Under the pieces are notes generated by a model that had not been told where the DNA came from, ran no database searches, and was given only the letters and a program-made list of their open reading frames with translations. DNA of 64,000 bases from a bacterium (lineage in GTDB: Bacteria > Patescibacteriota > Minisyncoccia > UBA6257 > GWB1-50-10), in the NCBI GenBank assembly GCA_021801565.1, contig JAJYXV010000003.1, positions 293 to 64,292 on the forward strand, in the 5' to 3' direction. Within the stretch, counting starts at the first letter, position 1. Each line of letters begins with the position of its first letter. Position numbers and translations under genes: made by a program. Shown piece after piece: positions 2,629-55,314 of the stretch.

Positions 2629-2724
2629 CCCCGTTAGATAGAGATAAAATTAAATGTTATCGTATATTACAAATAAGGAAATGTTAAAAAACAAAAAGGT
2701 CAATCTAGAATTATATCTAACGGG
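2629..2724 (+). repeat. Intergenic palindromic element, CCCGTTAG...CTAACGGG family (divergent copy)
   Basis: CCCCGTTAGATAGAG ... TTATATCTAACGGGG inverted termini flank an AT-rich core. Right end abuts the GTG at 2725. Confidence 0.45.
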
Positions 2725-4666: not shown

Positions 4667-7600
4667 ATGAAAAAGATCATCTTTGATGAAAAGGAATTAA
4701 TTCAAATATATGAGGGATCTCCTTCATATTTTGAGTTGATGAAAAAACTTTCTGCGCTTTACGAAAAACAAAAGAAGGCAAAAGAAATTCCAGAGCGTTT
4801 AGTAGAAAGAAAGTTTATTAATTCTGCAAAATCATTGGCAAAAAGACTTAAATTGGTGAAAGAACACCATCATGCCAAATACTCTTTCCGTTTATGGGAT
4901 GAAAATCGTCTTGCAGAGTTTACTCATGCGGTACGAAAAACAATCCGTGAGAGGAAAAAATATGACGTATTGCTCAAGGATTTTCCAGAGCTGGGAAGTA
5001 CAAATATTGTGTACTTTACGATTCAATCGGCAATCCCTGGCGGTATTAAAGGGATTCGCGATGCAATCGCTATGGTCGGGAGCGTCGAGCTTGATACGCT
5101 TCGTGACGCATTGAATGATGCCGAAAGAGGAGTTTTGGATTGTATGAATGAGCTCTACAAAACAAAACGTATGTTACGTGTCGGAGATGTTGCTGAAGTA
5201 ATCAAAAGCAGCAAAGATAGCATTCGTGGTATTATGGTAAAACTTGCTGCGCAGGGTTTCTTTGTGAATATTCCTGGCGAGCATCACTTGTTTTTCAACA
5301 ATTCTCCAAACTTCTACACCCCAAAGGAATTAATGAAGCTTATCTCGACCGAAGAGCAAAATAGGATTGCAAATGTTCTTCATATGGGTCCTATTACCAC
5401 GCGTCGTCTCGCACAACAGCTGTATGGTCAGGAAAAAGTAAGTAATGCATTTCTTTCTACGTATCTTACTAACCTTACCGAACGCGGATTATTGGAAATT
5501 GATCGAGACACCAGTGAATATTTATTGACTAAAAAGGGAAGTGAATTTGGTATTGATGCTACATCAATTCAAGCTCTTGATATCACCATACTTGAAAACA
5601 AATTTCTTATAAGAGACGAAGAACGTTCAAAGCCGTTTAAGAGTCTTTCAGAAGTAAGAAATGCGGTCATTCAAGACAATGAGGATAAGGAGATAAGGTT
5701 GATTGATATATCAAATCATCTTTCTAAGGATAGCTTCAAATTTCTCACTATCTCAGAAATTCTTTTTGGGAATCAAAATACCGATGTAGCCCTTTTGGAA
5801 AAGATCCTTCTCAAATCGGAACCTGATTTTGCGATTGTAAGCGGTCTTGTTCAAGGCACATTCACAGCGCGAAATGTAAAGCGTCAAAATGAGCTTGTTC
5901 AACCTCGAAAATTATATAAGATTGGATCTCAAATAAGCGCCGCATCGCAATTTCTTAATAAACTTGATGAGCGAACAAAAGGTCCGGTTTGTATTGCGCT
6001 TGGTGATGATGATCTTCGTATTGCTGAAGATTATGCAGATATTGCGCAATTGAATGAGGGAAAAACTTGGACATTTGGCGTGAATTACACAAGTCTTACT
6101 GCAGAATTGCAACGAAGGATTAATATTCGCGAATATCACACAAAACGGAAGATTCAGTTTGAAATAATTTTACCGTATCAATATCGAGTACGTCGCGCAT
6201 TAAAAAATGCGAAAGAAGTGTGGAAGGAAATCGGAGTTAAAAAGTCCGAATACCGTCTTATCATGGAAATTCTCATTTTGAATCGCGCAAAACAACCGTA
6301 TCCTGAAATTTATGAAAAAGTTGTTGATGTCAATGCGTTACTTGGTGGTTTAAAACATGGAATTGTTACACCCGATTCTCTGATTTTAAAAGTTGGCGAT
6401 CGTACTATACAGTTTGTGCATAACACGAATTTTAGTGATGTAACACAATATGTAGATCCGCTTTTTACCTCAGAGAAAATTATGCGACATTTCATGTCTC
6501 GTGATTATCAGAAACTACCATGGATGTTGCTTGATGGACATCAAGAGATGTTTTATGGAACATATTTCCAGAATCACTGGGTTATGTGTCTTCCTGGAAT
6601 GCAGAATTCACTTGATATGGCAATGCACCGCAAAAAAACCCTCGTGACACGAGTTCTTCAATCAAAGTCCTTAAGGCAAAATACATTCCGAAAAGATCCA
6701 TCAACACCAGGGGCTGTTGAAATTGAAGTTTGTACTGAAGGTGGAATTGAAAACGATGGAAGAATCCGTCTTAGATTCTTTAATGATAAGATTATGGATT
6801 TACTTGATCGGGAGAAGGGCAAAAAGCACAAACAAACTGTTATTGGAGTTCTCACTGATCTTCAGTTTGGCTCTCCAACAATGCAGCCCGAACTTGTAAT
6901 AAAATATCTTGATTATTTACTCTACACTCGTGGTGCAAGATTGTTACGCGGAAATGGTGATTGGCTTCAGGGGTTTATCTATCCAGGATTTCCAGCAGAA
7001 TCAAGAACATTGCGGATGGTATCGGTTGATGCTCAACAACGCTTTACAAATGAGTTGTTAGTTCCGCTAATTACCGATGCTCCACACCTGGAAGATGTTG
7101 CTTTCTGGCAGGGGAATCATGAATGGGGTATCTGGAGTAATGCACTAACTGGTCAAAATGCGTTGTATTTTATGGAGGCCGCACTTCAAAGATTTATTGA
7201 TGGAATGAGAAAGGCGGGAAAAAATCCAAAACTCAAAACTGCAAGTACGGTAAGTAGAATTATTATGGCTCGTACCACGAATCCGATGGGTGATAGAATT
7301 CTTTTTCCGTATTTTGCTGAGACGGTAGATGAGTGGTTCAAAATTGCGTACACGCACCAGTGGCTTCCATATGGAGGCGGACGAACACCCGTTGATCAAC
7401 CACGTCGCTGGGTAAGCAACATGGCAAATGCTGCGGGAGATATAAATGTGTTGATTGGTGGAGACAAGCATTCGCTGTGGTTGAATCAGGAAGCGGGAAA
7501 GATTCTTATTCAATTGCCTGCTGCCGCAACTCAAAGTGGATATGAACTTGCTCGAGGACTTATGTCTACTGTAATGTTCGCGCTTCTCGTTGTGGATAAT

Positions 7601-8594: not shown

Positions 8595-9752
8595 ATGGTC
8601 ACTTATATACGTAACACTTTGATAAAGAAAGGAACAACGTGCCTCTTGCGCATTGATTTAAATGTTGAATCATTGAAAGATTTATTCCGTGTGGAGTCGG
8701 TTGTTCCGACAATAAAGTTTCTGAGAAAGAAACATGTAAAAATAGTGATATTGAGTCATAGAGGAAGACCGCATCCCGAGGGACAGGGGATTCTGAATTT
8801 TAAATATAAAGTTTCTGACGAAGAGAAAAAGAGATATACATTGAGGCCATTTTCCAATATTGTTTCAAAAAAAATCGGGGAAAAAGTGAAGTTTATTGAC
8901 AGGTCGGATATTCAGGAGATAAGTGAGGAAATAAGAAATTCAAAAGATGAAGTTTTTATTCTTGAAAATATGCGCTTTTGGAGAGAAGAAGAAATGGATA
9001 GTATGGAATTTGGGAGACAACTTGCCTCACTGGGTGATTTTTATGTGAATGATGCGTTTGCGGTGAGTCACCGTGCGAACGCTTCGGTTTCCGCAATTAC
9101 TCGTTTTTTGCCTTCTTATGGCGGTTTGCTTCTCGAAAAAGAATTGGAGAATTTGGATACGGTAATACATAGTCCAAAACATCCATTTGTAATATTAATT
9201 GGGGGAATGAAAGTTTCAGACAAGGTTGGGGTGGTAAAATTCTTTTGGAAAAATGCAGATTCATTTCTTTTTGGCGGGGGAGCAGCAAACACATGTCTTG
9301 CGGCGCGAGGAGCATCAATTGGCACTTCTCTTGTGGATGAAAAAGCGTTTGAAGAAATACGGCCATACCTTGCGTCACTAAAAATACATCTTCCTGTTGA
9401 TACTGTAAATTCAGAAGGTAGAATCTTGGATATCGGGCAAAAAACTATTTCTGAATATACAAATATCATCGCAGATGCAAAAACTATTATATGGAGTGGA
9501 CCAATGGGATTCTTTGAAAAAAAGAAATTTTCTTCTGGAACGACGGAAATGTGGAAAACTATTATAAAATTAGCAAATAAAAACAAAAAAATTGTGATAA
9601 TAATTGGAGGAGGAGAGACCATAGCTTCGCTCAAATTATTAATTACCAACTACAAACTACCGAAAAACATATTTCTCTCGACGGGTGGCGGGGCAATGCT
9701 TGCGTATTTGTCCGGAGAAAAATTACCGGGAATTGAGGCGTTAAAAAAATAA
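8595..9752 (+). CDS. pgk: Phosphoglycerate kinase
   Basis: 385 aa. VNDAFAVSHRANASV signature. N-terminus LLRIDLNVE. Confidence 0.85.
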   Translation: MVTYIRNTLIKKGTTCLLRIDLNVESLKDLFRVESVVPTIKFLRKKHVKIVILSHRGRPHPEGQGILNFKYKVSDEEKKRYTLRPFSNIVSKKIGEKVKFIDRSDIQEISEEIRNSKDEVFILENMRFWREEEMDSMEFGRQLASLGDFYVNDAFAVSHRANASVSAITRFLPSYGGLLLEKELENLDTVIHSPKHPFVILIGGMKVSDKVGVVKFFWKNADSFLFGGGAANTCLAARGASIGTSLVDEKAFEEIRPYLASLKIHLPVDTVNSEGRILDIGQKTISEYTNIIADAKTIIWSGPMGFFEKKKFSSGTTEMWKTIIKLANKNKKIVIIIGGGETIASLKLLITNYKLPKNIFLSTGGGAMLAYLSGEKLPGIEALKK

Positions 9753-9760
9753 TTATAAAT

Positions 9761-9900
9761 CCCGTTAGAAACCCTGCTTACCGGCAGGCAGGCGCAATCG
9801 ATATATATAAAATAAAAAACAACTATGAGATATATAACAAAACAATTAGTCGCAATAAAGCCTATTATGGGTTGCTTGATCGCGATCTGTTTCTAATGGG
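9761..9900 (+). repeat. Intergenic palindromic element, CCCGTTAGAAAC...GATCGCGATCTGTTTCTAATGGG family
   Basis: Left end CCCGTTAGAAAC plus a CCTGCTTACCGGCAGGCAGG hairpin. AT-rich core with ATATATAAAATA. Right end abuts ATG 9901. Confidence 0.6.
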
Positions 9901-10764
9901 ATGAAAAAAATATTAGTGTTATATCACAAAAATTGTCCGGATGGGTTCGGAGGGGCATGGGCGGCATGGAAAAAATTTGGCAATAAAGCTGAATACGTTG
10001 CCGTTGATCCCGATACGCTTCCCGAAAAGTTTCCAAAGGGAAAAGAGATATATTCGGTTGATATAAGCTATCCGGTTTCAGTTCAAAAAAAATTACGGGA
10101 GAAAAACAAATCGCTTGTGATACTTGATCATCACGTGAGTAGAAAAAACGACACGGAGGCGTTTCCCGAAAATACATTTAATAATAATCATTCGGGTGCC
10201 GTGCTTGGATGGAGGTATTTTCATCCAAAAAAGAAGGTACCGAAATTTTTGGAATATATTGAGGATTATGATTTATGGAAATTTTCACTTCCAAAAACAA
10301 GAAGTATTATTCCATATCTCCATATGCAAAAAACTGATTTTATAACATGGGGGGAAATGGCGGATCAACTTGAAAAAAGAAATTGGGAAAAAATTTATTA
10401 TGAACGGGGGATGCTTTTACAAAAATATGAGGATAAAATAGTTGCCGACCTAATAAAAAAAGCAGACCTTGTTCTTTTTGAGAGAAAAAAGGTGTATGCA
10501 GTGAACTCTTCTCTAAGTAACATTGTGGATAAAATTGCTCACAATCTTTGTTTAAAAAAACAGCCGTTTTCAATTGTGTGGCATGAAAGAAGAGGAGAAT
10601 TAAAAGTATCTCTTCGTGCCGATGGGAAAATTGATGTATCGAAGATTGCACAAAAATACGGTGGAGGAGGGCATAAGAGCGCGTCGGGATTCGTAATAAA
10701 AAACGGGAAAAAACCATGGAAGATGGTAAAAACAAAAGACAAAAAACCGAAAACGAAAGATTAG
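9901..10764 (+). CDS. DHH/DHHA1 phosphoesterase (NrnA-like oligoribonuclease/pAp phosphatase)
   Basis: HKNCPDGFGGAWAAW, VILDHH and GGGHKSASGF motifs. Confidence 0.7.
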   Translation: MKKILVLYHKNCPDGFGGAWAAWKKFGNKAEYVAVDPDTLPEKFPKGKEIYSVDISYPVSVQKKLREKNKSLVILDHHVSRKNDTEAFPENTFNNNHSGAVLGWRYFHPKKKVPKFLEYIEDYDLWKFSLPKTRSIIPYLHMQKTDFITWGEMADQLEKRNWEKIYYERGMLLQKYEDKIVADLIKKADLVLFERKKVYAVNSSLSNIVDKIAHNLCLKKQPFSIVWHERRGELKVSLRADGKIDVSKIAQKYGGGGHKSASGFVIKNGKKPWKMVKTKDKKPKTKD

Positions 10765-12123: not shown

Positions 12124-12136
12124 TTGAGGTATGCAT

Positions 12137-12247
12137 CCCATTAGAAATCGCGATTGCTGATGGGATAAAAATAAAATGCAAAAAATACAAGTCGTAATTA
12201 AAGAAAGTATAAACCAGTTCGTTTAATCACGATCTGTTTCTCATAGA
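12137..12247 (+). repeat. Degenerate copy of the CCCGTTAGAAAC palindromic element
   Basis: CCCATTAGAAATCGCGAT ... ATCACGATCTGTTTCTCATAGA. Ends at rpmJ ATG 12248. Confidence 0.4.
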
Positions 12248-12364
12248 ATGAAAGTTCGTGCATCAGTAAAAAAGATTTGTCAGCATTGTAAAATCGTCCG
12301 AAGGAACGGCAAGTTGTATGTCATTTGTAAAAAAAATCCGAAACACAAACAAAGACAAGGATAA
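12248..12364 (+). CDS. rpmJ: 50S ribosomal protein L36
   Basis: 38-aa [41 protein letters not shown]. Below the ORF-track size cutoff. Confidence 0.8.
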
Positions 12365-13236: not shown

Positions 13237-13251
13237 AATCTATTTATGAGT

Positions 13252-13382
13252 CCCGTTAATAATAGTTTTTATATCATTGACGGAATTATGAAATGACATT
13301 ATGTTAAATACACAAAAAACAAAAAAGACGAAATTTACAGAAAAAACGTACGGAAACGTAAACGTTTCCTATTATTAACGGG
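13252..13382 (+). repeat. Intergenic palindromic element, subfamily 2 (CCCGTTAATAATAG...CTATTATTAACGGG)
   Basis: Perfect 14-nt inverted termini. Internal hairpin GGAAACG-TAAA-CGTTTCC. Right end abuts ATG 13383. The preceding ATGAGT starts a tiny ORF. Confidence 0.55.
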
Positions 13383-13985
13383 ATGAAAAAAATTACGGAA
13401 AAAAAAGAACGATCACTCGGTGTAAGACTTTTCTTAAAAGCTGAACGGTGTAATTCTCCAAAATGTGTCATGGTGCGTCGTCCCACTCGTCCTGGTCAGC
13501 ATGGACAAAGACGGCACACGGTTTCTGAATATGGGAAGCAGCTACAAGAAAAACAAAAAATTCAGTTTTTATATGGGTTAACAAACCGCCAGATGACAAA
13601 ATTATTTCAGTCTTCAAATAGAAAAGAAAAGATTTTGCAGGTTCTTGAACATCGTCTTGATCGAGTCGTTTTTCTTCTTGGTTTCGCTGCATCTCCACGT
13701 ATTTCCCGTCAGCTTATTTCGCATGGCCATGTGTTGGTAAATGGAAGAAAAGTGACTATTCCATCGTTTCGTGTTAGGATAAAGGACATCATATCGATTC
13801 GTCCCGAATCTCGATCTCTTAAGCTCTTCGAAGAAATTCAGCTAAAGTTAAAGAAATATTCCTCTCCAGAATGGTTGAAGCTTTTTCCAGAGGAGTTAAA
13901 GGGGGAATGTGTAAAGAATTTTGATCCGGGGCAATCGCAGTTGCCATTTGATGTAAATATCGTCGGAGAATTTTATTCAAGATAA
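13383..13985 (+). CDS. rpsD: 30S ribosomal protein S4
   Basis: RQLISHGHVLVNGRKVTIPSFRV S4 domain. Confidence 0.9.
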   Translation: MKKITEKKERSLGVRLFLKAERCNSPKCVMVRRPTRPGQHGQRRHTVSEYGKQLQEKQKIQFLYGLTNRQMTKLFQSSNRKEKILQVLEHRLDRVVFLLGFAASPRISRQLISHGHVLVNGRKVTIPSFRVRIKDIISIRPESRSLKLFEEIQLKLKKYSSPEWLKLFPEELKGECVKNFDPGQSQLPFDVNIVGEFYSR

Positions 13986-25131: not shown

Positions 25132-25140
25132 CATATGGAT

Positions 25141-25273
25141 CCCGTTAATGATAACTTTTTTCAGAAGATGGGAATTTTATGATTACATTTAATTATGAAG
25201 AATAAAAAAGAAAGGTACGACACATACAGACAAAAAGTGTACAGAAACGATTGCGTTTCTTATCATTAACGGG
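25141..25273 (+). repeat. Intergenic palindromic element, subfamily 2 (CCCGTTAATGATAA...TTATCATTAACGGG)
   Basis: Perfect 14-nt inverted termini. Internal hairpin AGAAACG-ATTG-CGTTTCT. Flanked by ATGGAT on both sides. Right end abuts ATG 25274. Confidence 0.55.
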
Positions 25274-26338
25274 ATGGATATTGTACTCATTATTGTGGGC
25301 CTTTCGGTGCTCATACTTGTGCATGAGATTGGACATTTTGTGAGTGCTAAATTTTTCGGAATCGGTGTCGAAGAATTTGGCATAGGGTTTCCCCCCCGGA
25401 TTTTTGGCAAAAAATATAAAGGAACACTCTATAGTGTGAATGCACTTCCATTTGGCGGATTTGTAAAAATAATTGGCGAAGATGGGGATGAGAATGAAAA
25501 GGGTAATGAAATAAAAAAAGATTCGTTAAATTTTTCTTCTCAGAAAATATGGAAGAGAGTAATTGTTCTGGTGGCAGGCGTTTCAATGAACATCATTGCC
25601 GGATGGATTATTTTTAGTGCTGTGTTTATGGTGGGGGTGCCGACAAAACTTACCATTATTGATGTATCTTCAAATTCTCCAGCGGCAATAGCAGATATAA
25701 AAGCAAATGATTTTATTGTAAAAGCTACCTATAGCACAAAAACACTTGAGGATCCCATTCAAACTAAAGATTTTATCAGCCTTGTAAAAGAAGCGGGGGA
25801 AAACAACATAACACTTACCCTACAAAGGGGAAAGGAGGTGATAGAAAAAACGCTTCAAGGAAGAATACATCCTCCTGAAGGACAGGGTTCGCTTGGATTG
25901 GGATTGGGGGAATCGGGCGTTGAACGAAAAAGTTTTTTTGGAAGTTTGTGGTATGGAGCAACGTACACATGGGATATCATACGAATGACGACCATTGGAT
26001 TTTTTGATCTCATTGTAAAAATATTTTCTGCACCAGGAATGGTAAAAAATGTTGCGGGTCCCGTGGGGATTGTGGTGATTGCAAAACAAGCGGCCGATAT
26101 CGGTTTTGTATATTTTCTTCAATTGCTCGCGCTTATTTCGATAAATTTGGCGGTATTAAATTTATTGCCGTTTCCCGCACTCGATGGGGGACGCGTGCTT
26201 CTCCTTGCAATTGAAAAAATAAAAGGGAGTCCCGTTTCACTTCGTGTACAATCATATATAAATATGGCGGGTTTCTTTCTTCTAATTGCACTTATGCTTT
26301 TTGTGACGTTTCAGGATGTGACAAAACTGTTTAAGTAG
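25274..26338 (+). CDS. rseP: RseP/site-2 zinc metalloprotease (PDZ-containing)
   Basis: LVHEIGHFVSAKFFG HExxH. Polytopic membrane protein. LDGG motif. Confidence 0.75.
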   Translation: MDIVLIIVGLSVLILVHEIGHFVSAKFFGIGVEEFGIGFPPRIFGKKYKGTLYSVNALPFGGFVKIIGEDGDENEKGNEIKKDSLNFSSQKIWKRVIVLVAGVSMNIIAGWIIFSAVFMVGVPTKLTIIDVSSNSPAAIADIKANDFIVKATYSTKTLEDPIQTKDFISLVKEAGENNITLTLQRGKEVIEKTLQGRIHPPEGQGSLGLGLGESGVERKSFFGSLWYGATYTWDIIRMTTIGFFDLIVKIFSAPGMVKNVAGPVGIVVIAKQAADIGFVYFLQLLALISINLAVLNLLPFPALDGGRVLLLAIEKIKGSPVSLRVQSYINMAGFFLLIALMLFVTFQDVTKLFK

Positions 26339-36480: not shown

Positions 36481-37146
36481 ATGGGGAATTTTGGAAAGAT
36501 TTTAATTGGAGTTGCGATTATTGGGTTGCTTATCTATGGAGCATATTATGCATATACAAATTGGTGGGGGAATGGAAATGCCGATAGTGCGGTAGGAAAA
36601 GTAAAGGGTATTGCGGTTGAAGCGGTGCAGAGCACAAAAGAAAAAATATCGGAAGCACAAACAACGACAGGAGAAAAAATTGGGACATTTATAAAGGAAA
36701 AAACCGGATCGGTAATTTCCTCTATTGGAAACTCAATTTCAAGTTTTGGGGATTCTATAGTTGGCGAAAAGGTAACTACTAATCAAAATACTTCTGGAGG
36801 AAATTCAAGTATTAATTCTTCTCCACAGACAGTCGTACTATCAGGTGGTGTGAATAGTACCACCACGGAAGCTGCAACAGGATCAAATTTTGTTTTACCA
36901 CCTCCCTTTACTGCAATTATTACAAAAATAAATACACCGCTTGCGTTTTCAATAAATAGAGAGGTAAATTATTCGATTGATTGGGCAGATGGAACTACAG
37001 AAAAAGGAAAAGTTTTGGCCGGAGAAAGTATGTTAGTTTCACATGAGTGGAAAAAACAGGGGGATTATACTATTGTGTTCACTATTGTTGACTCTACAGA
37101 AAGTCACACCTATTCATTTCCTATAAGGGTATATGAGTCCCGTTAG
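36481..37146 (+). CDS. Hypothetical membrane-anchored, Ser/Thr/Gly-rich protein
   Basis: N-terminal TM, low-complexity middle. Its stop codon TAG lies inside the left terminus of the next palindromic element. Confidence 0.35.
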   Translation: MGNFGKILIGVAIIGLLIYGAYYAYTNWWGNGNADSAVGKVKGIAVEAVQSTKEKISEAQTTTGEKIGTFIKEKTGSVISSIGNSISSFGDSIVGEKVTTNQNTSGGNSSINSSPQTVVLSGGVNSTTTEAATGSNFVLPPPFTAIITKINTPLAFSINREVNYSIDWADGTTEKGKVLAGESMLVSHEWKKQGDYTIVFTIVDSTESHTYSFPIRVYESR

Positions 37147-37257
37147 AAACAGCGATCGCGCGCATAAACTATAAATTTTAGAGATATATATACTATGGTC
37201 GGATATATAAAATATACGTACACTTCGCATTTTTGATCGCGATCTGTTTCTAACGGG
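37139..37257 (+). repeat. Intergenic palindromic element, subfamily 1 (canonical copy)
   Basis: CCCGTTAGAAACAGCGATCGCG ... GATCGCGATCTGTTTCTAACGGG with an AT-rich core (GGATATATAAAATATAC). Right end abuts ATG 37258. Confidence 0.6.
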
Positions 37258-38073
37258 ATGAATAAATTTAAAAAAACTGAAATTCTTTCTGCACAACGCT
37301 CGCATAAACCGAGAAAAAAAATTCGCGTTTGGGGAATTGCGCTTATTATATTTTTTGTTGTTGGAATTCTTATCGGATTGTCTTATCTTATTTTGAATAT
37401 GCAGATGCTTAAGGTACAGAGTATAAAAGTATCGGGAGTCCGCCTTACAAATCAGAATACTATCATTTCTTCTTTTTTTGCAGAGTCGGTAAAGCAAAAA
37501 GCGTGGTTGGTGCTCCTTGGTCCCGATAACCTTCTTTTTTGGAAATTTGCCCCAGAAGAAATTTCTCCTCTGTATGTTTCTACAGTGCAAGATATAAAAA
37601 AAGACGTTAGTTTTGGAGAGAAGAAAGTTCTTTTGGATGTAACAGAACGTTCAGTGGTGAACGTACTTTGTGAATATAATGGAGGAAAGTGTTATGGAAT
37701 GGATGAAAACGGGTTTGTTTTTTCTTCTGTACCGGAAGTGCATGGTGCACTTATTTTGCGGTTTGAGGCGGGTCCAGGAGAGAAAATAATGGTGGGGAAA
37801 CAATACCTTGATTCCCCCGAGTGGACGAAAAATATTATGGAAACAATTTCGATTATGGAATCTGAAGGGTTTACTCCTAAATTAATAAAGGTAAAAGGGG
37901 TTGGACTCGAAGAGTGGGAAGCGGTAATGCCTGAAGGATTTTCTTTTTATTTTAGCCTTCACTTTATTCCTGAAAATTTCCGTTCAATCTTAAACGATAT
38001 TTCTTCAAAGACTCGTCTCGATACGCTCCAATATTTCGATTTTCGAGTGCAGAACAGAGTGTATTATAAATGA
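37258..38073 (+). CDS. ftsQ: FtsQ/DivIB-like cell-division protein (POTRA)
   Basis: Basic N-terminus, single TM, POTRA-like region (LKVQSIKVSGVRLTNQNTI). Confidence 0.45.
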   Translation: MNKFKKTEILSAQRSHKPRKKIRVWGIALIIFFVVGILIGLSYLILNMQMLKVQSIKVSGVRLTNQNTIISSFFAESVKQKAWLVLLGPDNLLFWKFAPEEISPLYVSTVQDIKKDVSFGEKKVLLDVTERSVVNVLCEYNGGKCYGMDENGFVFSSVPEVHGALILRFEAGPGEKIMVGKQYLDSPEWTKNIMETISIMESEGFTPKLIKVKGVGLEEWEAVMPEGFSFYFSLHFIPENFRSILNDISSKTRLDTLQYFDFRVQNRVYYK

Positions 38074-46417: not shown

Positions 46418-46722
46418 ATTGACCTAAATCGTATTTTGTGTATTATATACACAAGCCCGTAGATAGTCCCGATTTTATATGCGCGAAGCGAATTAATAAA
46501 ATCGTGGATCCCGATCAGGAAAATGTATTGGGATAGGCAGCCAGAAATGGCAGAAGTCCTGCTGAGGAAACAAAAATAGGTGTTAGCAAGTTAGGTATTA
46601 GGTGTTTAGGAAATTTCTAAATTACTAATGGTCTAGCCGTCTAACTTTCTGATTTAAGAGTCTGCGGCGAAAGGTCGGAGATTTTTTTGTTTTGTTTGAG
46701 CGAAGCGAAATTACAAAACAAA

Positions 46723-46887
46723 CCCCGTTAGATACATATGTATTTTGTCTATGTGTTGAAAAGTAGGAAAGATTCAAATTTTTATGTTGGAAAGACTAAA
46801 AATTTGAAAGAGTGTCTTGAAAACATAAAGGGGGAAGAGATGTCTAAAGAACAGGCTTAAGTATGATCTTTATGGTATCTAATAGGG
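46723..46887 (+). repeat. Degenerate palindromic element (CCCCGTTAGATAC ... GTATCTAATAGGG)
   Basis: Inverted termini, 11 of 13 matching, about 165 bp apart in the long rplJ leader. Confidence 0.3.
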
Positions 46888-46932
46888 TACTGAATTTTGT
46901 GTTTATTCGCGAAGCTTATAAACAAAATTCGT

Positions 46933-51385: not shown

Positions 51386-51676
51386 ATGACCATTATTAAT
51401 CCAGCCAAAAATAGAGATTATATACGATTTTTGATAATGTTTTTTGGCATGATCTTTATCGCGGGTGTTATTTATATTTCAGAATATAACGCGTTTGTTG
51501 ATGCGAGGTATGAATCAAAAATATTGAAGCAGGATATTGTAAAACTACAGGAGCAAAATGCAGAACTGAAGAATTCATATTATCAAATGACGGATCCTAC
51601 GCGTTTAGAAAAATTAGCTACTGATTACGAACTTATTCTTGATCGACAACCAAAGTATTTAGGATCCGCGCAATGA
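51386..51676 (+). CDS. ftsL: FtsL-like small cell-division protein
   Basis: 96 aa, single TM plus coiled-coil. Conserved position between rsmH and ftsI; the call is by context only. Confidence 0.4.
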   Translation: MTIINPAKNRDYIRFLIMFFGMIFIAGVIYISEYNAFVDARYESKILKQDIVKLQEQNAELKNSYYQMTDPTRLEKLATDYELILDRQPKYLGSAQ

Positions 51677-53283
51677 AAAATTTTCGATTCTACGCACTCT
51701 TTTTTATTTTTGTCATATTATATAGCGCACTTGGCGCCAATCTTTACAAACTGCAGATCAGTAAGGGTGCAGAATTTTCGGCAAAAGCAGATGTAGTAAA
51801 AGAGATAGAAAAAGAACTTACTTTGCGTCGTGGTCAAATATTTTTTACAGATAAATTTGATACGAGTATTCCTATTGCTCTTAATAAAGATGAACCTATT
51901 ATTTTTATTGCACCAAATGAAATAAAAAGTCCGAAAAAGACAAGTGAGGAACTCAGCAAAATTTTCGGAATAGATGCTTTGAAGTTAGAAGAAGTGATTA
52001 ATTCAAATCCAGAGAGCTATTTTTTTCCGTTAGTTGATAGAGCGACTGAAGAGCAGGTAAACTTTGTAAGCGAAAAAAAACTTGAGGGTGTGCATGTAGA
52101 ACAAAAACAGTATCGTTCGTATCCATACGATAACCTTGCATCGCAAGTGATTGGATATGTTGGAAAGAATGATAAGAATCCAGAACCCACCGGGATTTAT
52201 GGTATTGAACGTTTTTATGATAAAGAACTTTCCGGTGGAGAAGATATTCATCTTACCATTGATAGAAATATACAATCGCATGCGGAACAGCTTCTCAATA
52301 GGTACATTGAAAAATTTAAGGCGACTGGGGGAACGATGATCGTGGAGAATCCAAAAACGGGAAAAATTATTGCACTTACTAGCAAACCAGATTTCAATCC
52401 AAATGAATATGGGAAATCAAATATAAAGAATTTTATAAATCCAGCGGTTCAGTATCAGTATGAACCTGGATCGGTATTTAAGCCGCTTACCATGTCGGCG
52501 GGGATTGATACGGGGGCGTTTACTCCTAATACAACGTTTGTCGATAAGGGATTTGTAACACTGAATGGGAGAACAATTCATAATGCGGAAAATAAAGTAT
52601 ATGGAAGGATCACTATGACGAGTGTGATTGAAAATTCTGTAAATACGGGAGCGGTATATGCAGAGCAACTTATTGGACATAAAAATTTTTATGAATATTT
52701 AAAGAAGTTCGGTTTTACAGAAAAAACAGGGATTAATTTACCAGAAGAAATTGCTGGAAATATACGGAATCTTGAACGAAAAGATGCGCGTGCCATTGAT
52801 TTCGCAACTGTTGCATTCGGACAGGGAGCTGCAGTAACACCGCTTCAGCTTGTGAATGCATTTTCGGTATTAGCAAATGGGGGATTGCTTATGAAGCCAT
52901 ATATTAATGAAGATGAAGCTCCGTATGTGGTACGGCGCGTGATAAGTGATGACACGGCGAAAAAAGTAACCTCAATGATTGAAACAACAGTTGAAAAAGC
53001 GAAAATAGCGGCAATTCCACAATATAGAGTTGCGGGAAAAACTGGGACAGCATACATTCCTGAAAATGGGAAGTATACAGAGGAAATGATTCATACATTT
53101 GTCGGATTTGCGCCAGTAAGCGATCCGCAGTTTGTCGTGTTAGTAAAACTTGATCGTCCACAGATCGGCGAGCTTGCGGGTCTCACTGTTGTTCCGGCTT
53201 TTCGTGAGTTATCCGAATTTATATTGAATTATTACAACATTCCTCCCGATAAGGTAAGCGCTGCACAGAATTCATCCCGTTAG
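51673..53283 (+). CDS. ftsI: Penicillin-binding protein (class B, FtsI-like transpeptidase)
   Basis: SVFKP (SxxK), SxN and KTGTA motifs. Its stop codon TAG lies inside the next palindromic element. Confidence 0.8.
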   Translation: MKNFRFYALFFIFVILYSALGANLYKLQISKGAEFSAKADVVKEIEKELTLRRGQIFFTDKFDTSIPIALNKDEPIIFIAPNEIKSPKKTSEELSKIFGIDALKLEEVINSNPESYFFPLVDRATEEQVNFVSEKKLEGVHVEQKQYRSYPYDNLASQVIGYVGKNDKNPEPTGIYGIERFYDKELSGGEDIHLTIDRNIQSHAEQLLNRYIEKFKATGGTMIVENPKTGKIIALTSKPDFNPNEYGKSNIKNFINPAVQYQYEPGSVFKPLTMSAGIDTGAFTPNTTFVDKGFVTLNGRTIHNAENKVYGRITMTSVIENSVNTGAVYAEQLIGHKNFYEYLKKFGFTEKTGINLPEEIAGNIRNLERKDARAIDFATVAFGQGAAVTPLQLVNAFSVLANGGLLMKPYINEDEAPYVVRRVISDDTAKKVTSMIETTVEKAKIAAIPQYRVAGKTGTAYIPENGKYTEEMIHTFVGFAPVSDPQFVVLVKLDRPQIGELAGLTVVPAFRELSEFILNYYNIPPDKVSAAQNSSR

Positions 53284-53413
53284 AAACCCTGCCCGCCGGT
53301 AGGCAGGTGCGATTGCGCCTAGAAGATATTAATTTAAAAAACATGCATACCATCGTCGAATATATAAAATATACACATATCGCACTCATCGATCGCGATC
53401 TGTTTCTAACTGG
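53276..53413 (+). repeat. Intergenic palindromic element, subfamily 1
   Basis: CCCGTTAGAAAC plus a CCTGCCCGCCGGTAGGCAGG hairpin ... GAATATATAAAATATAC ... GATCGCGATCTGTTTCTAACTGG. Abuts murF ATG 53414. Confidence 0.6.
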
Positions 53414-54718
53414 ATGAAAAACTTTTTTCTTTCGATTCTTAAAAAAAAGGTAAAATTTCTTGCAAAACTTACGCTGAAGCGCTACAACCCGGGTATTGTA
53501 GGTATTACGGGAAATATTGGAAAAACATCCACAAAAGAGGCAGTTGGAGTTGTACTTTCGCAAGCACGAAGAGTACGCGCATCATCAAAAAATTTTAATA
53601 ACGAATTGGGGTTACCACTTTCTATTCTTGGAGATTGGAATGTAACAGAAGGAATCTTTTTTTGGATGAAGGTATTTTTTAAATCGATATACCAGCTTGT
53701 CATTAAAAACAAAAAATACCCTGAAATAATTGTATTAGAATATGGAGTTGATCGGGCGGGGGACATGAAATATTTACTTGATATTGCACGTCCGCATATT
53801 GGTATTTTTACTGCAATGGGAGATGAAATGCCCGTACATATCGAATTCTTTAGCGGTATTGAAGCAATTGTGAAAGAGAAATCTAGACTTATACAACAAC
53901 TTCCTACAACGGGGTTTGCAATTTTGAATGCAGATGACATTCGTGTGATGGCAACGAGGGAATATACACATGCAAATGTAGTGACATTTGGATTTTCTGA
54001 AAAGGCAAATATGCGGATTAGTGGTTTTTCGAGCTATGTTTCTGAGGATGGTGGGGGGGTGACGTTTAAGCTTACGTATGGAGGAAGTGTGGTGCCGGTG
54101 CGGATTGATGGAGGACTAGGAAGGGCACCTGCATATGCCGCTGCGATAGGTGCTGTGGTTGGATTGGTGTTTGGAATGAATTTGGTAAAAATTGCAGAAG
54201 CGCTTTCTCATTATATTCCTCCAAGTGGACGAGAGCGTGTCATTCGTGGAGTGCGCCACTCAATTATTATTGATGATACATATAATGCGTCTCCAAGTGC
54301 TACAAAGGAGGCCCTCTCTACACTGAAGAGTTTAAGTGCAAAAAGAAAAATTGCTGTGTTGGGGGATATGCTTGAGTTAGGGAAATATACGTTTGACGAA
54401 CATCAAGCAATCGGACGCCTTATTCCTGAAAGTGCGGATTTATTATTTACTGTCGGTATCCGTGCAAAAATTATTGCCGAGACTGCTGAAAAAATTGGAT
54501 TTTCAAAGAAAAAAATATTTGTATTTACCAATATTCATGAAGCGGCAATGCAACTACAACAAAAAGTATTGCGCGGAGATCTTATTTTGATAAAGGGATC
54601 ACAAGGAGTCCGCATGGAACGGGTGGTAAAAGAAATTATGGCTGAACCGCTTCGAGCAAAAGAATTTTTAGTGAGACAAAGTAGATCATGGTTACGAAGG
54701 GCGGGATTGTATGATTAA
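53414..54718 (+). CDS. murF: UDP-N-acetylmuramoyl-tripeptide--D-alanyl-D-alanine ligase
   Basis: GITGNIGKTSTKE P-loop, GNFNNELGLP motif, Mur ligase middle and C-terminal domains. Confidence 0.7.
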   Translation: MKNFFLSILKKKVKFLAKLTLKRYNPGIVGITGNIGKTSTKEAVGVVLSQARRVRASSKNFNNELGLPLSILGDWNVTEGIFFWMKVFFKSIYQLVIKNKKYPEIIVLEYGVDRAGDMKYLLDIARPHIGIFTAMGDEMPVHIEFFSGIEAIVKEKSRLIQQLPTTGFAILNADDIRVMATREYTHANVVTFGFSEKANMRISGFSSYVSEDGGGVTFKLTYGGSVVPVRIDGGLGRAPAYAAAIGAVVGLVFGMNLVKIAEALSHYIPPSGRERVIRGVRHSIIIDDTYNASPSATKEALSTLKSLSAKRKIAVLGDMLELGKYTFDEHQAIGRLIPESADLLFTVGIRAKIIAETAEKIGFSKKKIFVFTNIHEAAMQLQQKVLRGDLILIKGSQGVRMERVVKEIMAEPLRAKEFLVRQSRSWLRRAGLYD

Positions 54719-54929: not shown

Positions 54930-55187
54930 ATGATATACACCCTTTATATCCTCAAATCGAACAAGAGTGGAAGATATTATGTAGGATCAACCAGTAATAT
55001 TATTCATCGTCTTGCAGAACATAATGGTGGTAGGGTAAAATCAACAAGAGCATATATACCATGGAGTGTGGCATATACGAAGACATTTCACTCACTTTCT
55101 GAGGCAAGAAGAAGAGAGTTGCAAGCGAAATCTTGGAAAAGTAGGGATGCTATTGAAAAATTATTGGCCTCATCGTCTAACGGCTAG
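54930..55187 (+). CDS. Small GIY-YIG (URI) domain protein (COG2827/YhbQ-like)
   Basis: YTLYILKSNKSGRYYVGSTSNIIHRLAEHN. Its last ~22 nt overlap the 5' end of tRNA-Glu. Confidence 0.6.
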   Translation: MIYTLYILKSNKSGRYYVGSTSNIIHRLAEHNGGRVKSTRAYIPWSVAYTKTFHSLSEARRRELQAKSWKSRDAIEKLLASSSNG

Positions 55188-55237
55188 GACAATGCCCTCT
55201 CACGGCATAAATAGGAGTTCGATTCTCCTTGGGGCTG
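55166..55237 (+). tRNA. tRNA-Glu (anticodon CUC)
   Basis: Manual cloverleaf. Acceptor GGCCTCA / TGGGGCT (two G-U pairs), D-stem GTCT / GGAC, anticodon stem ATGCC / GGCAT, loop CTCTCAC, T-loop TTCGATT. Discriminator G. Confidence 0.7.
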
Positions 55238-55314
55238 CACTTAGAAAATCATATCGAGATTTTGAGGTATAGATTTTCAAGTGCTCCGATCGTAGTATTG
55301 GAGCAAAAAATATT

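Follow-up and report, generated by a model that had tools for sequence, protein, structure and literature searches.

Why should two genes of the same genome come to an end inside the same short sequence? The question is raised by a 64,000-nt stretch of contig JAJYXV010000003.1 (positions 293 to 64,292, forward strand; GenBank assembly GCA_021801565.1, from a member of the Patescibacteriota), which we call the window. In it, a 13-nt sequence, TCCCGTTAGAAAC, contains the TAG stop codon both of a gene for an FtsI-like penicillin-binding protein (PBP) and of a PKD-like open reading frame (ORF) beginning at 36481, and the short answer is that this sequence is the left arm of an inverted repeat. The element to which it belongs is a member of a superfamily of non-autonomous transposons of Patescibacteria that resemble MITEs (miniature transposable elements with inverted repeats), and the stretch CCCG-TAG-AAAC is its left terminal inverted repeat (TIR). 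We are very confident of the transposon origin and of the view that the stop codons are its by-product; a fuller account, which combines both with a function of the element in passing ribosomes on to the host gene, is one that we consider likely, with somewhat less assurance.

Two stop codons inside the end of an element

The original prediction had placed both stops within the left terminus of a repeated element, and the sequence bears this out at both loci. The PBP gene (51673-53283, + strand; Pfam PBP_dimer and Transpeptidase) finishes AAT TCA TCC CGT TAG, with its TAG at 53281-53283, and ORF 36481 (36481-37146, + strand) finishes TAT GAG TCC CGT TAG, with its TAG at 37144-37146; the final Ser-Arg of both proteins is encoded by the TCC CGT of the element, as had also been claimed, and element-free orthologs end otherwise. 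At the opposite end, the right arm, GTTTCTAAC(G/T)GG, directly abuts the ATG of murF (53414) and that of an ftsQ-like gene (37258). Across the window, CCGTTAGAAAC is matched seven times at no more than one mismatch, against 0.99 expected, and the right-arm 20-mer GATCGCGATCTGTTTCTAAC, which continues as (G/T)GG, three times against an expectation of 0.

Did the element insert and so create the stops, or is it an ancient junction module between an upstream stop and a downstream start? Both had been proposed, together with a comparison of the C-termini with those of orthologs that lack the element, and in that comparison terminal residues and stop positions differ for both proteins. Among 120 FtsI homologs, neither the length nor the sequence of the tail beyond the conserved ..PPDK is fixed; the closest orthologs (80-85% identity) have the endings NK, SK, NK and IN, and the element-encoded SR is found in the window protein and in 0 of the 119 others. 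One homolog, P0056, ends in ..ESR and was considered as a third insertion; its codons are AGC AGA TAA, it has no element, and we regard the likeness as a coincidence. The ftsI/murF site itself is empty in L058, an 83% relative in which ..CAA AGC AAA TAG is found at ATG AAA AAT (..AAATAGatATGAAA), and empty too in L061, a 67% relative, while L059, an 80% relative, carries an element of a second family exactly at the murF ATG. For ORF 36481, the conserved part of the protein ends ..RVY and is followed by ESR, NG, nothing, N or ETL; orthologs at empty sites end RVY*, RVYN*, RVYNG* and RVYETL*, those at filled sites RVYESR*. In L159 (tail NG) the empty junction reads ..GTC TAT A-ATG-GCT-AA-A TTT, so that the upstream stop lies within codons 2-3 of the downstream gene in an 8-nt overlap; in L160 the empty 36481/ftsQ-like junction is TGA + 8 nt + ATG; and L161 (tail ESR) has a variant element between the same flanks, ATGAGT and ATGAAT. 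Since the empty-site orthologs share neither the residues nor the stop position, the branch in which the element inserted and created a stop is the right one.

The way in which this could come about is simple enough. Before insertion, the window copy of ORF 36481 would have run ..GTA T[ATGAA]T AA.., the upstream gene ending ..VYE-TAA inside the start of its neighbour; insertion after ATGAR would have displaced that TAA, and the frame would then have passed through GAG TCC CGT TAG, adding Ser-Arg. The TAG of the terminus is thus used as a stop because the upstream gene originally ran past the insertion point, through an overlapping junction, and lost its old stop downstream. How often does this happen? 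Other copies do supply stop codons, as the original prediction had wondered, although not as a rule: of 109 non-redundant copies in other genomes, the terminus TAG closes the upstream long ORF in 12 (tails ..ESR, GSR, SSR, QSR and GPR); in 10 the stop falls within the left repeat, as where a former ATGA overlap provides the TGA, in 9 it lies further inside the element, and in the remainder it is upstream of the element. Compared across filled and empty sites, the sequences show the two overlaps in the window to be by-products of insertion into overlapping junctions, an outcome that recurs in a minority of copies. Some upstream genes gain rather more than two residues: in L119, L115/L157, L013 and L132 the upstream gene reads through the whole element to the TAA of the right arm, with an open frame of 95-126 codons and a C-terminal extension of ~40 residues instead of SR.

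Several stronger claims do not survive these comparisons. The element had been called a fixed inter-cistron spacer, and what is constant across copies is that the right end abuts a start codon, not that the left end abuts a stop, the latter being found in only ~11% of copies. Nor are the two C-termini constrained by nucleotide-level conservation, as had been suggested; they are tails beyond the conserved domain that vary freely among orthologs, and the Ser-Arg is a neutral appendage. An ancient, vertically inherited junction or leader module could have explained why the ends are nearly identical across many Patescibacteria lineages and why the right end is always fused to the start codon; however, orthologous sites are empty in relatives at 80-94% identity (the ftsI/murF and 36481/ftsQ-like sites among them), one site can hold different families, which are swapped within flanks free of single-nucleotide polymorphisms, and near-identical copies sit at unrelated loci of one genome before unrelated downstream genes, so we give this explanation very little credence. 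We give even less to pure coincidence, the notion that stop and motif overlap with no causal link to the element. A tail such as that of P0056 does arise without one, and one frame in three meets the TAG, yet at both window loci TCC CGT TAG belongs to the element, 10 further copies elsewhere give this tail too, and empty-site orthologs stop elsewhere with other residues.

A mobile element at start codons

What, then, is the element? In canonical form it has the layout [ATGRR]T-CCCGTTAGAAACCGCGATCGC...AT-rich interior...GATCGCGATCTGTTTCTAACGGG-[ATGRR]N, with TIRs of 12-21 bp built on a 12-nt core (CCCGTTAGAAAC / GTTTCTAACGGG) that extends to ~21 nt. Sister families have the outer termini CCCGTTA...TAACGGG in common and all families CCCG...CGGG. 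Copies measure 95-176 nt (~120-140 nt for the element of the two stop-supplying copies) and hold ORFs of no more than ~40 codons.

The footprints of insertion are found in the flanks. The right end is directly followed by ATG in 52 of 58 copies, and in 37 of the 58 there is an ATG at position -6 on the left as well; in 34 of these 37 the fourth and fifth nucleotides are also equal on the two sides (AA/AA, AG/AG, GA/GA, GG/GG and CG/CG), where 10,000 permutation trials average 15.8 and never exceed 25. Repeats are seen around copies with non-ATG flanks too, such as ATTTTA/ATTTTA and CGTTG/CGTTG. Of 58 copies, 56 have a T at position -1, the corresponding position on the right being free, and since the T is constant only on the left it belongs to the element. 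In a logo of the flanks of 108 copies only A-T-G-R-R is conserved, and the purines are a feature of the target: RR follows the ATG at 89 of 97 element-associated starts compared with 28 of 44 native starts (Fisher p = 1.4e-4). The target is thus the start codon of a gene together with its next two bases, and insertion doubles it: one repeat is left before the T of the element, and the other restores the host start right behind the right end. Immediately upstream of a host start is where 92 of 109 copies lie. One pair of sites shows the event cleanly, with 94% identity in the flanks: L095 is empty (caatagtATGAGTtttata), and L078 is filled (caatagtATGAGT[CCCG..154 nt..CGGG]ATGAGTtttata). Exact-protein look-ups for two window genes were less informative, in that L36 was not on record and S4 was found without an empty allele. 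Copies within one genome have interiors that are 94-100% identical and flanks that are unrelated. TIRs, a target-site duplication, small size, multiple dispersed copies with no transposase and presence/absence polymorphism are thus all seen, as expected of a MITE.

Three points weigh against this picture or limit it. First, the duplication and the boundary are ambiguous by 1 nt: the target could be 5 nt with an asymmetric left T, or 4-5 nt if the element is TCCCG..CGGGA, and a few copies show 6 nt. Second, a preference for ATGRR does not by itself fully explain why ~84% of copies lie at real gene starts in one orientation, so that selection or a further targeting step has to be invoked. Third, neither the window nor 162 loci (~1.15 Mb) nor viral contigs yielded an autonomous element or a transposase whose termini match, so that transposition is inferred from footprints only. 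At all loci the search for a parent took in arms standing alone, TIR pairs far apart (165-4000 nt) and ORFs that end at the right-arm TAA; each candidate proved to be two separate MITEs, a truncated or nested copy, or an upstream gene that reads through. Pfam searches with the two minus-strand genes of the window and with neighbouring genes gave no transposase.

Some features of the arms are worth recording in their own right. Both hold a GATC, within GCGATCGC and GATCGCGATC (for example at 37151-37160 and 37235-37244 of the window), and GCGATCGC is the same octamer as the cyanobacterial HIP1 palindrome; by analogy with the GATC sites in the ends of IS10 and IS50, one might speculate that element activity is linked to DNA methylation. 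Just inside the left or right arm, some elements only have a GC-rich mini-hairpin, CCTGCC-loop-GGCAGG or the longer CTGCCTGCCCGAAAGAACGGTATTTTCCGTTCAGGCGG (window 9773-9793 and 53288-53308; L161 1831-1851; near the right arm in L078 and L138), which has the look of a further, smaller module that is mobile or can expand.

Seven copies of three families are present in the window, all on the + strand and each with its right end against the start codon of a gene on that strand. Four belong to family 1 (nhmmer E = 1e-24 to 4e-15). The copy between the FtsI-like PBP gene and murF (53275..53413) begins with T+CCCGTTAGAAAC at 53275-53287, which contains the PBP stop, followed by the GC hairpin at ~53288-53308; its left direct repeat has decayed to ..TTCAT, its internal ORF (53343-53417, 24 aa) ends at a TGA overlapping the murF ATG (ATGA), and its right arm, GATCGCGATCTGTTTCTAACTGG, ends at 53413. 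The copy between ORF 36481 and the ftsQ-like gene (37133..37257) has the left repeat ATGAG at 37133-37137, T at 37138 and CCCGTTAGAAAC at 37139-37150; the right arm ends at 37257, the host ATGAA occupies 37258-37262, and the internal ORF, here frameshifted, reaches its stop 22 nt short of the host ATG. The copy at 9755..9900, which lies between pgk and a DHH/DHHA1 gene, has a decayed left repeat, ATAAA (9755-9759), where its ortholog in L024 keeps an intact ATGAAT; it continues with T at 9760, CCCGTTAGAAAC at 9761-9772 and a GC hairpin at ~9773-9793, and its internal ORF (9825-9896, 23 aa, MRYITKQLVAIKPIMGCLIAICF) ends at a TAA (9894-9896) before the host ATG at 9901. Here the pgk stop (9750-9752) is outside and 5' of the element, 9 nt before 9761, so the stop-in-terminus arrangement is not constant even within the window. 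The fourth copy, at 12131..12247 between infA and rpmJ, is diverged (E = 3.9e-15), with ATGCA at 12131-12135, T at 12136 and CCCATTAGAAAT at 12137-12148 on its left and a right arm ..GATCTGTTTCTCATAGA that ends at 12247, next to the L36 ATG at 12248.

Family 2 has the TIR CCCGTTAATAATAG / CTATTATTAACGGG and, in its two window copies (13252-13382 and 25141-25273 without the left repeats), the arms CCCGTTAATRATAR / YTATYATTAACGGG. One, at 13246..13382 between rpsK (S11) and rpsD (S4), has the left repeat ATGAG (13246-13250) and an internal ORF (13301-13378, 25 aa) whose TAA (13376-13378) precedes the host ATG at 13383; the other, at 25135..25273, separates frr (RRF) from an M50 peptidase gene. 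The repeats on its two sides are perfect (ATGGA(T), 25135-25140; ATGGAT, 25274-25279), and its internal ORF (25195-25269, 24 aa) has its TAA at 25267-25269. The single family-3 element, of 95 nt (CCCGTTAGATAG.. / ..TATCTAACGGG; 2630..2724), abuts the GTG start (2725) of a GT2 glycosyltransferase gene and is without a clear flanking repeat and without a terminal upstream ORF (uORF). The genes downstream of the seven copies, as assigned with Pfam, encode L36, S4, MurF, the FtsQ-like protein, the M50 peptidase, the DHH protein and the GT2 glycosyltransferase; these are unrelated housekeeping functions, and so the copies do not define a regulon. Elsewhere in the window, between dnaJ and rplJ, an unusually long non-coding stretch (46418-46896, ~480 nt, with no Rfam match) contains a partial terminus-like sequence, CCCCGTTAGATAC, at 46723-46735, and beside it (~46740-46860) a by-eye translation resembles a short GIY-YIG-type nuclease fragment. 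A stand-alone 85-aa GIY-YIG ORF (54930-55187) lies downstream of murF near tRNA-Glu (55166-55238), and for the same gene in L062 a precomputed Pfam match to PF01541 exists.

How widespread are the elements? An exact 19-mer scan for the right arm, with one genome per species, gave 56 loci and ~47 full elements in ~30 metagenome-assembled genomes (MAGs) of Patescibacteria, in lineages that include Vogelbacteria, Liptonbacteria, Brennerbacteria, Falkowbacteria and Paceibacterota; at least 9 copies occur in a single genome of Vogelbacteria. A 21-mer scan for the left arm gave 81 metagenome loci, mostly from groundwater, with identical architecture in all. Judged by its FtsI homologs, the organism of the window belongs near Jorgensenbacteria/Paceibacteria. 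Seven actinobacterial matches to the 19-mer GATCGCGATCTGTTTCTAA (L022, L025, L028, L046, L049, L052 and L055) have no left arm and were set aside as unrelated; with similar flanks, they lie inside what is apparently one conserved ORF of freshwater Actinobacteria (Nanopelagicaceae-type MAGs). The matches in L015 and L051, which lie in apparent ORFs and also have no left arm, were discarded as unrelated as well.

The elements are also on the move, or have been until lately. Filled and empty alleles at orthologous sites show that insertions are recent, that they are specific to lineages and strains, and that the same start codons have been struck repeatedly. For example, contigs with an identical M50 peptidase carry two alleles at the frr/M50 site, both between the same ATGGAT repeats: a 133-nt family-2 element in the window, in L069 and in four other assemblies, and a 118-nt family-1-like element (CCCGTTAAAGACCGCGATCGC..GATCGCGATCTGTCTCTAACGGG) in L071, L074 and L075. 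L069 and L071 do not differ at any position over 1355 nt upstream and 2565 nt downstream, but they hold different elements, and because each allele is present in at least three independent assemblies this is not an assembly artefact. Direct tandem pairs occur in L005 (3880-4121; also in L099 and L113), L045 (~5922-6157), L125 (~3688) and L138 (~5771), their members separated only by a 6-nt ATGAAT (ACGTGT in L138), which indicates that the regenerated target beside a resident element can itself be hit again. Given that such arrays exist, the simplest path to a swap would be a second insertion at the regenerated ATGRR followed by deletion between direct repeats, and we infer, with less force than the insertions themselves, that swaps take place in this way. 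Nested and truncated derivatives were seen in L104 (- strand, ~835-1070), L133 (7226-7290) and L142 (- strand, ~754-820); among them are one element inserted in the right arm of another, and ~50-nt deletion derivatives with a second, orphan right arm behind them (..CTATCTCTAACGGG ATG). Contig L163 starts 24 nt upstream of rpsD, at the place where the window carries an element, which suggests that the repeats fragment assemblies of this organism.

The internal reading frame and the host start

How can a gene tolerate an insertion immediately in front of its start codon? The interior of the element offers a possible answer. An ATG-initiated ORF of at least 15 codons ends at the right-arm TAA of ..TTCTAAcgggATG in 41 of 58 copies, compared with 4.9 +/- 2.1 (maximum 11) after shuffling of the interiors and with 5 and 0 in the other two frames. 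In a set of 100 non-redundant copies with a host start at the right end, 73 have this TAA 4-5 nt upstream of the start and 6 overlap it as ATGA; in 5 others the stop lies within 30 nt, in 4 the frame is that of the host gene, and 12 lack such an ORF. Interior ATGs favour the same frame (91, as against 21 and 28 in the others), stop codons in its 3' part avoid it (24, as against 122 and 115), and a 36-nt hairpin insertion in L078 keeps it. Family 2 has the same TAA-CGGG-ATG design. In 25 copies there is a single ORF from the duplicated left ATG (M-N/S/D-PVRNRDR...IAICF*); in 26 the left ATG has decayed and the internal ORF is kept, so that the internal start is the conserved one. The ORF is 19-40 codons long, and its peptide sequence is poorly conserved.

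The genome around the element is of some importance here. Almost no Shine-Dalgarno (SD) motif is found at the gene starts of the window, which are AT-rich (for example 13991, 15111, 15461, 28904 and 41685), and where consecutive + strand ORFs of at least 100 codons meet with no element between them, the junction is no longer than 15 nt in 19 of 50 cases, typically TAA + 2-12 nt + ATG, short overlaps being seen as well; this suggests that SD-independent initiation and termination-reinitiation are the norm in this genome. Unlike these native contexts, the element puts GC-rich, base-paired sequence directly before the host ATG. Since the peptide is poorly conserved and translation up to the host start is conserved, we read the internal ORF as a relay. 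Ribosomes would translate the small ORF from the AT-rich interior, or from the duplicated left ATG, and on through the right arm, melting the terminal hairpin as they went; they would terminate at the TAA 4 nt before the host ATG, or in the ATGA overlap, and reinitiate at the host start, which would explain why the element is tolerated before essential genes. That the ORF acts as such a translational relay seems to us somewhat better than an even bet. We also considered a translational bypass in which the ribosome hops from the left to the right ATGRR, and abandoned it: the left ATG is missing in 21 of 58 copies, there is a difference at the third codon position, and the space between is taken up by an ORF that terminates.

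Not everything fits a relay. The terminal uORF is lacking in 12% of copies; it is disrupted or shifted in two of the four family-1 copies in the window (frameshifted at 37139, in the ATGA frame at 53276) and absent from the 95-nt element, yet all of these lie before essential genes; and its conservation could partly reflect shared descent within subfamilies. A purely selfish MITE, whose internal ORF is a relic of the frame of the parental transposase (begun close to one inverted repeat and ended within the other) with no effect on host expression, is therefore worth weighing, and we think it a minority possibility, to be taken seriously. Insertions would persist because SD-less initiation at an AT-rich ATG needs no upstream context, and the genome is in any case without SD motifs; in addition, the ends of the peptide (PVRNRDR.. 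and ..IAICF*) simply follow from the inverted repeats that encode them, and its interior shows little conservation. However, a decaying relic would not be expected to keep its frame open across diverged interiors and indels with a five-fold depletion of in-frame stops, or to show the enrichment of in-frame ATGs and the in-frame 36-nt insertion. Two families with different termini both set a TAA exactly 4 nt before the ATG, and the GC-rich, hairpin-paired sequence before the host start does not resemble the contexts of native starts.

Could the RNA hairpin itself be the functional unit, cleaved by RNase III or acting as a structural regulator that uncouples the cistrons, after the manner of Neisseria Correia elements or of intervening sequences in rRNA, with the ORF and the stops incidental? 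All copies can fold, with a terminal stem of ~13-22 bp enclosing the region up to the host ATG (minimum free energy -37 to -42 kcal/mol, z = -3.2 to -4.6), and variants in the two arms often co-vary (GAAGC/GCTTC, GAGGT/ACCTC, CCTG/CAGG). Changes in a single arm, however, are unbiased with respect to strand: on the + strand 21 produce G.U and another 21 A.C, a pair that would be G.U only on the opposite one. The behaviour of the arms is therefore that of symmetric DNA repeats recognised by a protein and not that of a selected RNA helix, and strand-specific RNA pairing as the cause of their conservation can be discarded. Rfam scans of two elements at E <= 10 returned only sub-threshold hairpin noise and no match, and a hairpin leaves both the ATGRR duplication and the conserved frame unexplained; altogether we think this explanation improbable, more so than the selfish one. 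At the gathering threshold Rfam found only two tRNAs in the whole window, and with no Rfam match a known ribozyme, intron or leader family was ruled out; so was splicing of the group I kind (the 5' exon ends in U and the element in G), for which the element is also far too small. Scans for sigma-70 promoters and intrinsic terminators around three copies gave nothing above the shuffle expectation, and the idea of a terminator-promoter cassette was dropped.

If the relay is real, a more adventurous version of it can be entertained, which we regard as tentative and rather doubtful: that this is a class of transposon not described before, translationally silent and homing to start codons, which captures the host's own start for an ORF of the element and returns the ribosome by termination-reinitiation. 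On this version the ORF might be a transposase in the autonomous parent and a 19-40 codon relic in the MITEs. Much as introns and inteins do, such a transposon would cancel the effect of its own insertion, and it might especially suit the SD-less, tightly coupled genomes of Patescibacteria; the starts of essential genes would then be places of rapid turnover.

What it means, and what it resembles

The overlap of stop codons with the terminus is a minor side effect, and its cause is the more notable: a widespread superfamily sits on the start codons of essential genes, including those of a ribosomal-protein operon, and ~12% of the genes in the window carry an element. The genomes of the candidate phyla radiation (CPR), or Patescibacteria, are among the smallest and most compact of bacteria and are usually regarded as poor in mobile DNA. 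If the relay holds, a transposon would be seen to make its insertions harmless at the level of translation, and the elements would offer a handle on how SD-less CPR bacteria choose their starts. For annotation, the elements create spurious C-terminal extensions (SR tails and the occasional read-through of a whole element), and they break metagenome assemblies; different elements at one site in strains with identical flanks would also make very fast-evolving strain markers. Searches of the literature, with the terminus sequences among the queries, gave no account of these elements, and neither a 2024 survey of MITEs (PMC11602168) nor a 2024 review (PMC10969869) mentions Patescibacteria or insertion at start codons. 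A MITE superfamily that is specific for start codons and has a terminal uORF appears to be new as a kind of MITE.

Which known systems come closest? The bacterial MITEs, such as Correia/NEMIS of Neisseria and ERIC of enterobacteria, share a length of ~100-150 nt, TIRs, a short target-site duplication, many copies and the lack of a transposase, and they are co-transcribed with their neighbours and form a long hairpin in the mRNA, as the elements described here are predicted to do. Correia elements duplicate TA on insertion. The present elements target ATGRR start codons, strongly prefer one orientation to the downstream gene, contain a frame-conserved ORF that ends 4 nt before the regenerated start, live in Patescibacteria and have no sequence or Rfam similarity to the Correia type, among which we therefore do not place them. 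In Correia inverted repeats the hairpin is cleaved by RNase III (PMC10969869).

The Rickettsia palindromic elements (RPEs) are small palindromic mobile elements with an ORF that alter host proteins (PMC10969869), and the likeness lies in the upstream proteins here, which gain SR or longer tails. The difference is one of place and outcome. RPEs lie in frame inside genes and become part of the protein, whereas these elements lie at a gene boundary with a separate, terminated ORF and leave the downstream protein unchanged; the great majority are immediately upstream of a host start, the ORF terminates before the ATG in ~80%, and an RPE-like in-frame insert is not what we see. Integron attC sites were also considered. 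An attC site has the order 5' inverse core RYYYAAC ... core GTTRRRY 3'. By inspection, the ends of the element read GTTAGAAAC...GTTTCTAAC, which is the opposite order with imperfect cores, and the attC reading was rejected.

As to a parent, IS1380 and piggyBac share 4-bp target-site duplications and CC..GG termini (PMC10045372). All families here have CC..GG ends, in the form CCCG..CGGG, and a short repeat; on the other side, the repeat is 5 nt or 4-5 nt and not clearly 4, ATGRR is unlike TTAA, and no transposase was found. A DDE transposon of the IS1380/piggyBac type as the parent is thus a lead only, drawn from analogy. There is a likeness, too, to the coupled operon junctions of the host itself: the right end of the element reproduces their form as TAA + 4 nt + ATG, or ATGA, with the difference that the upstream 'cistron' is an ORF of 19-40 codons carried on a mobile element.

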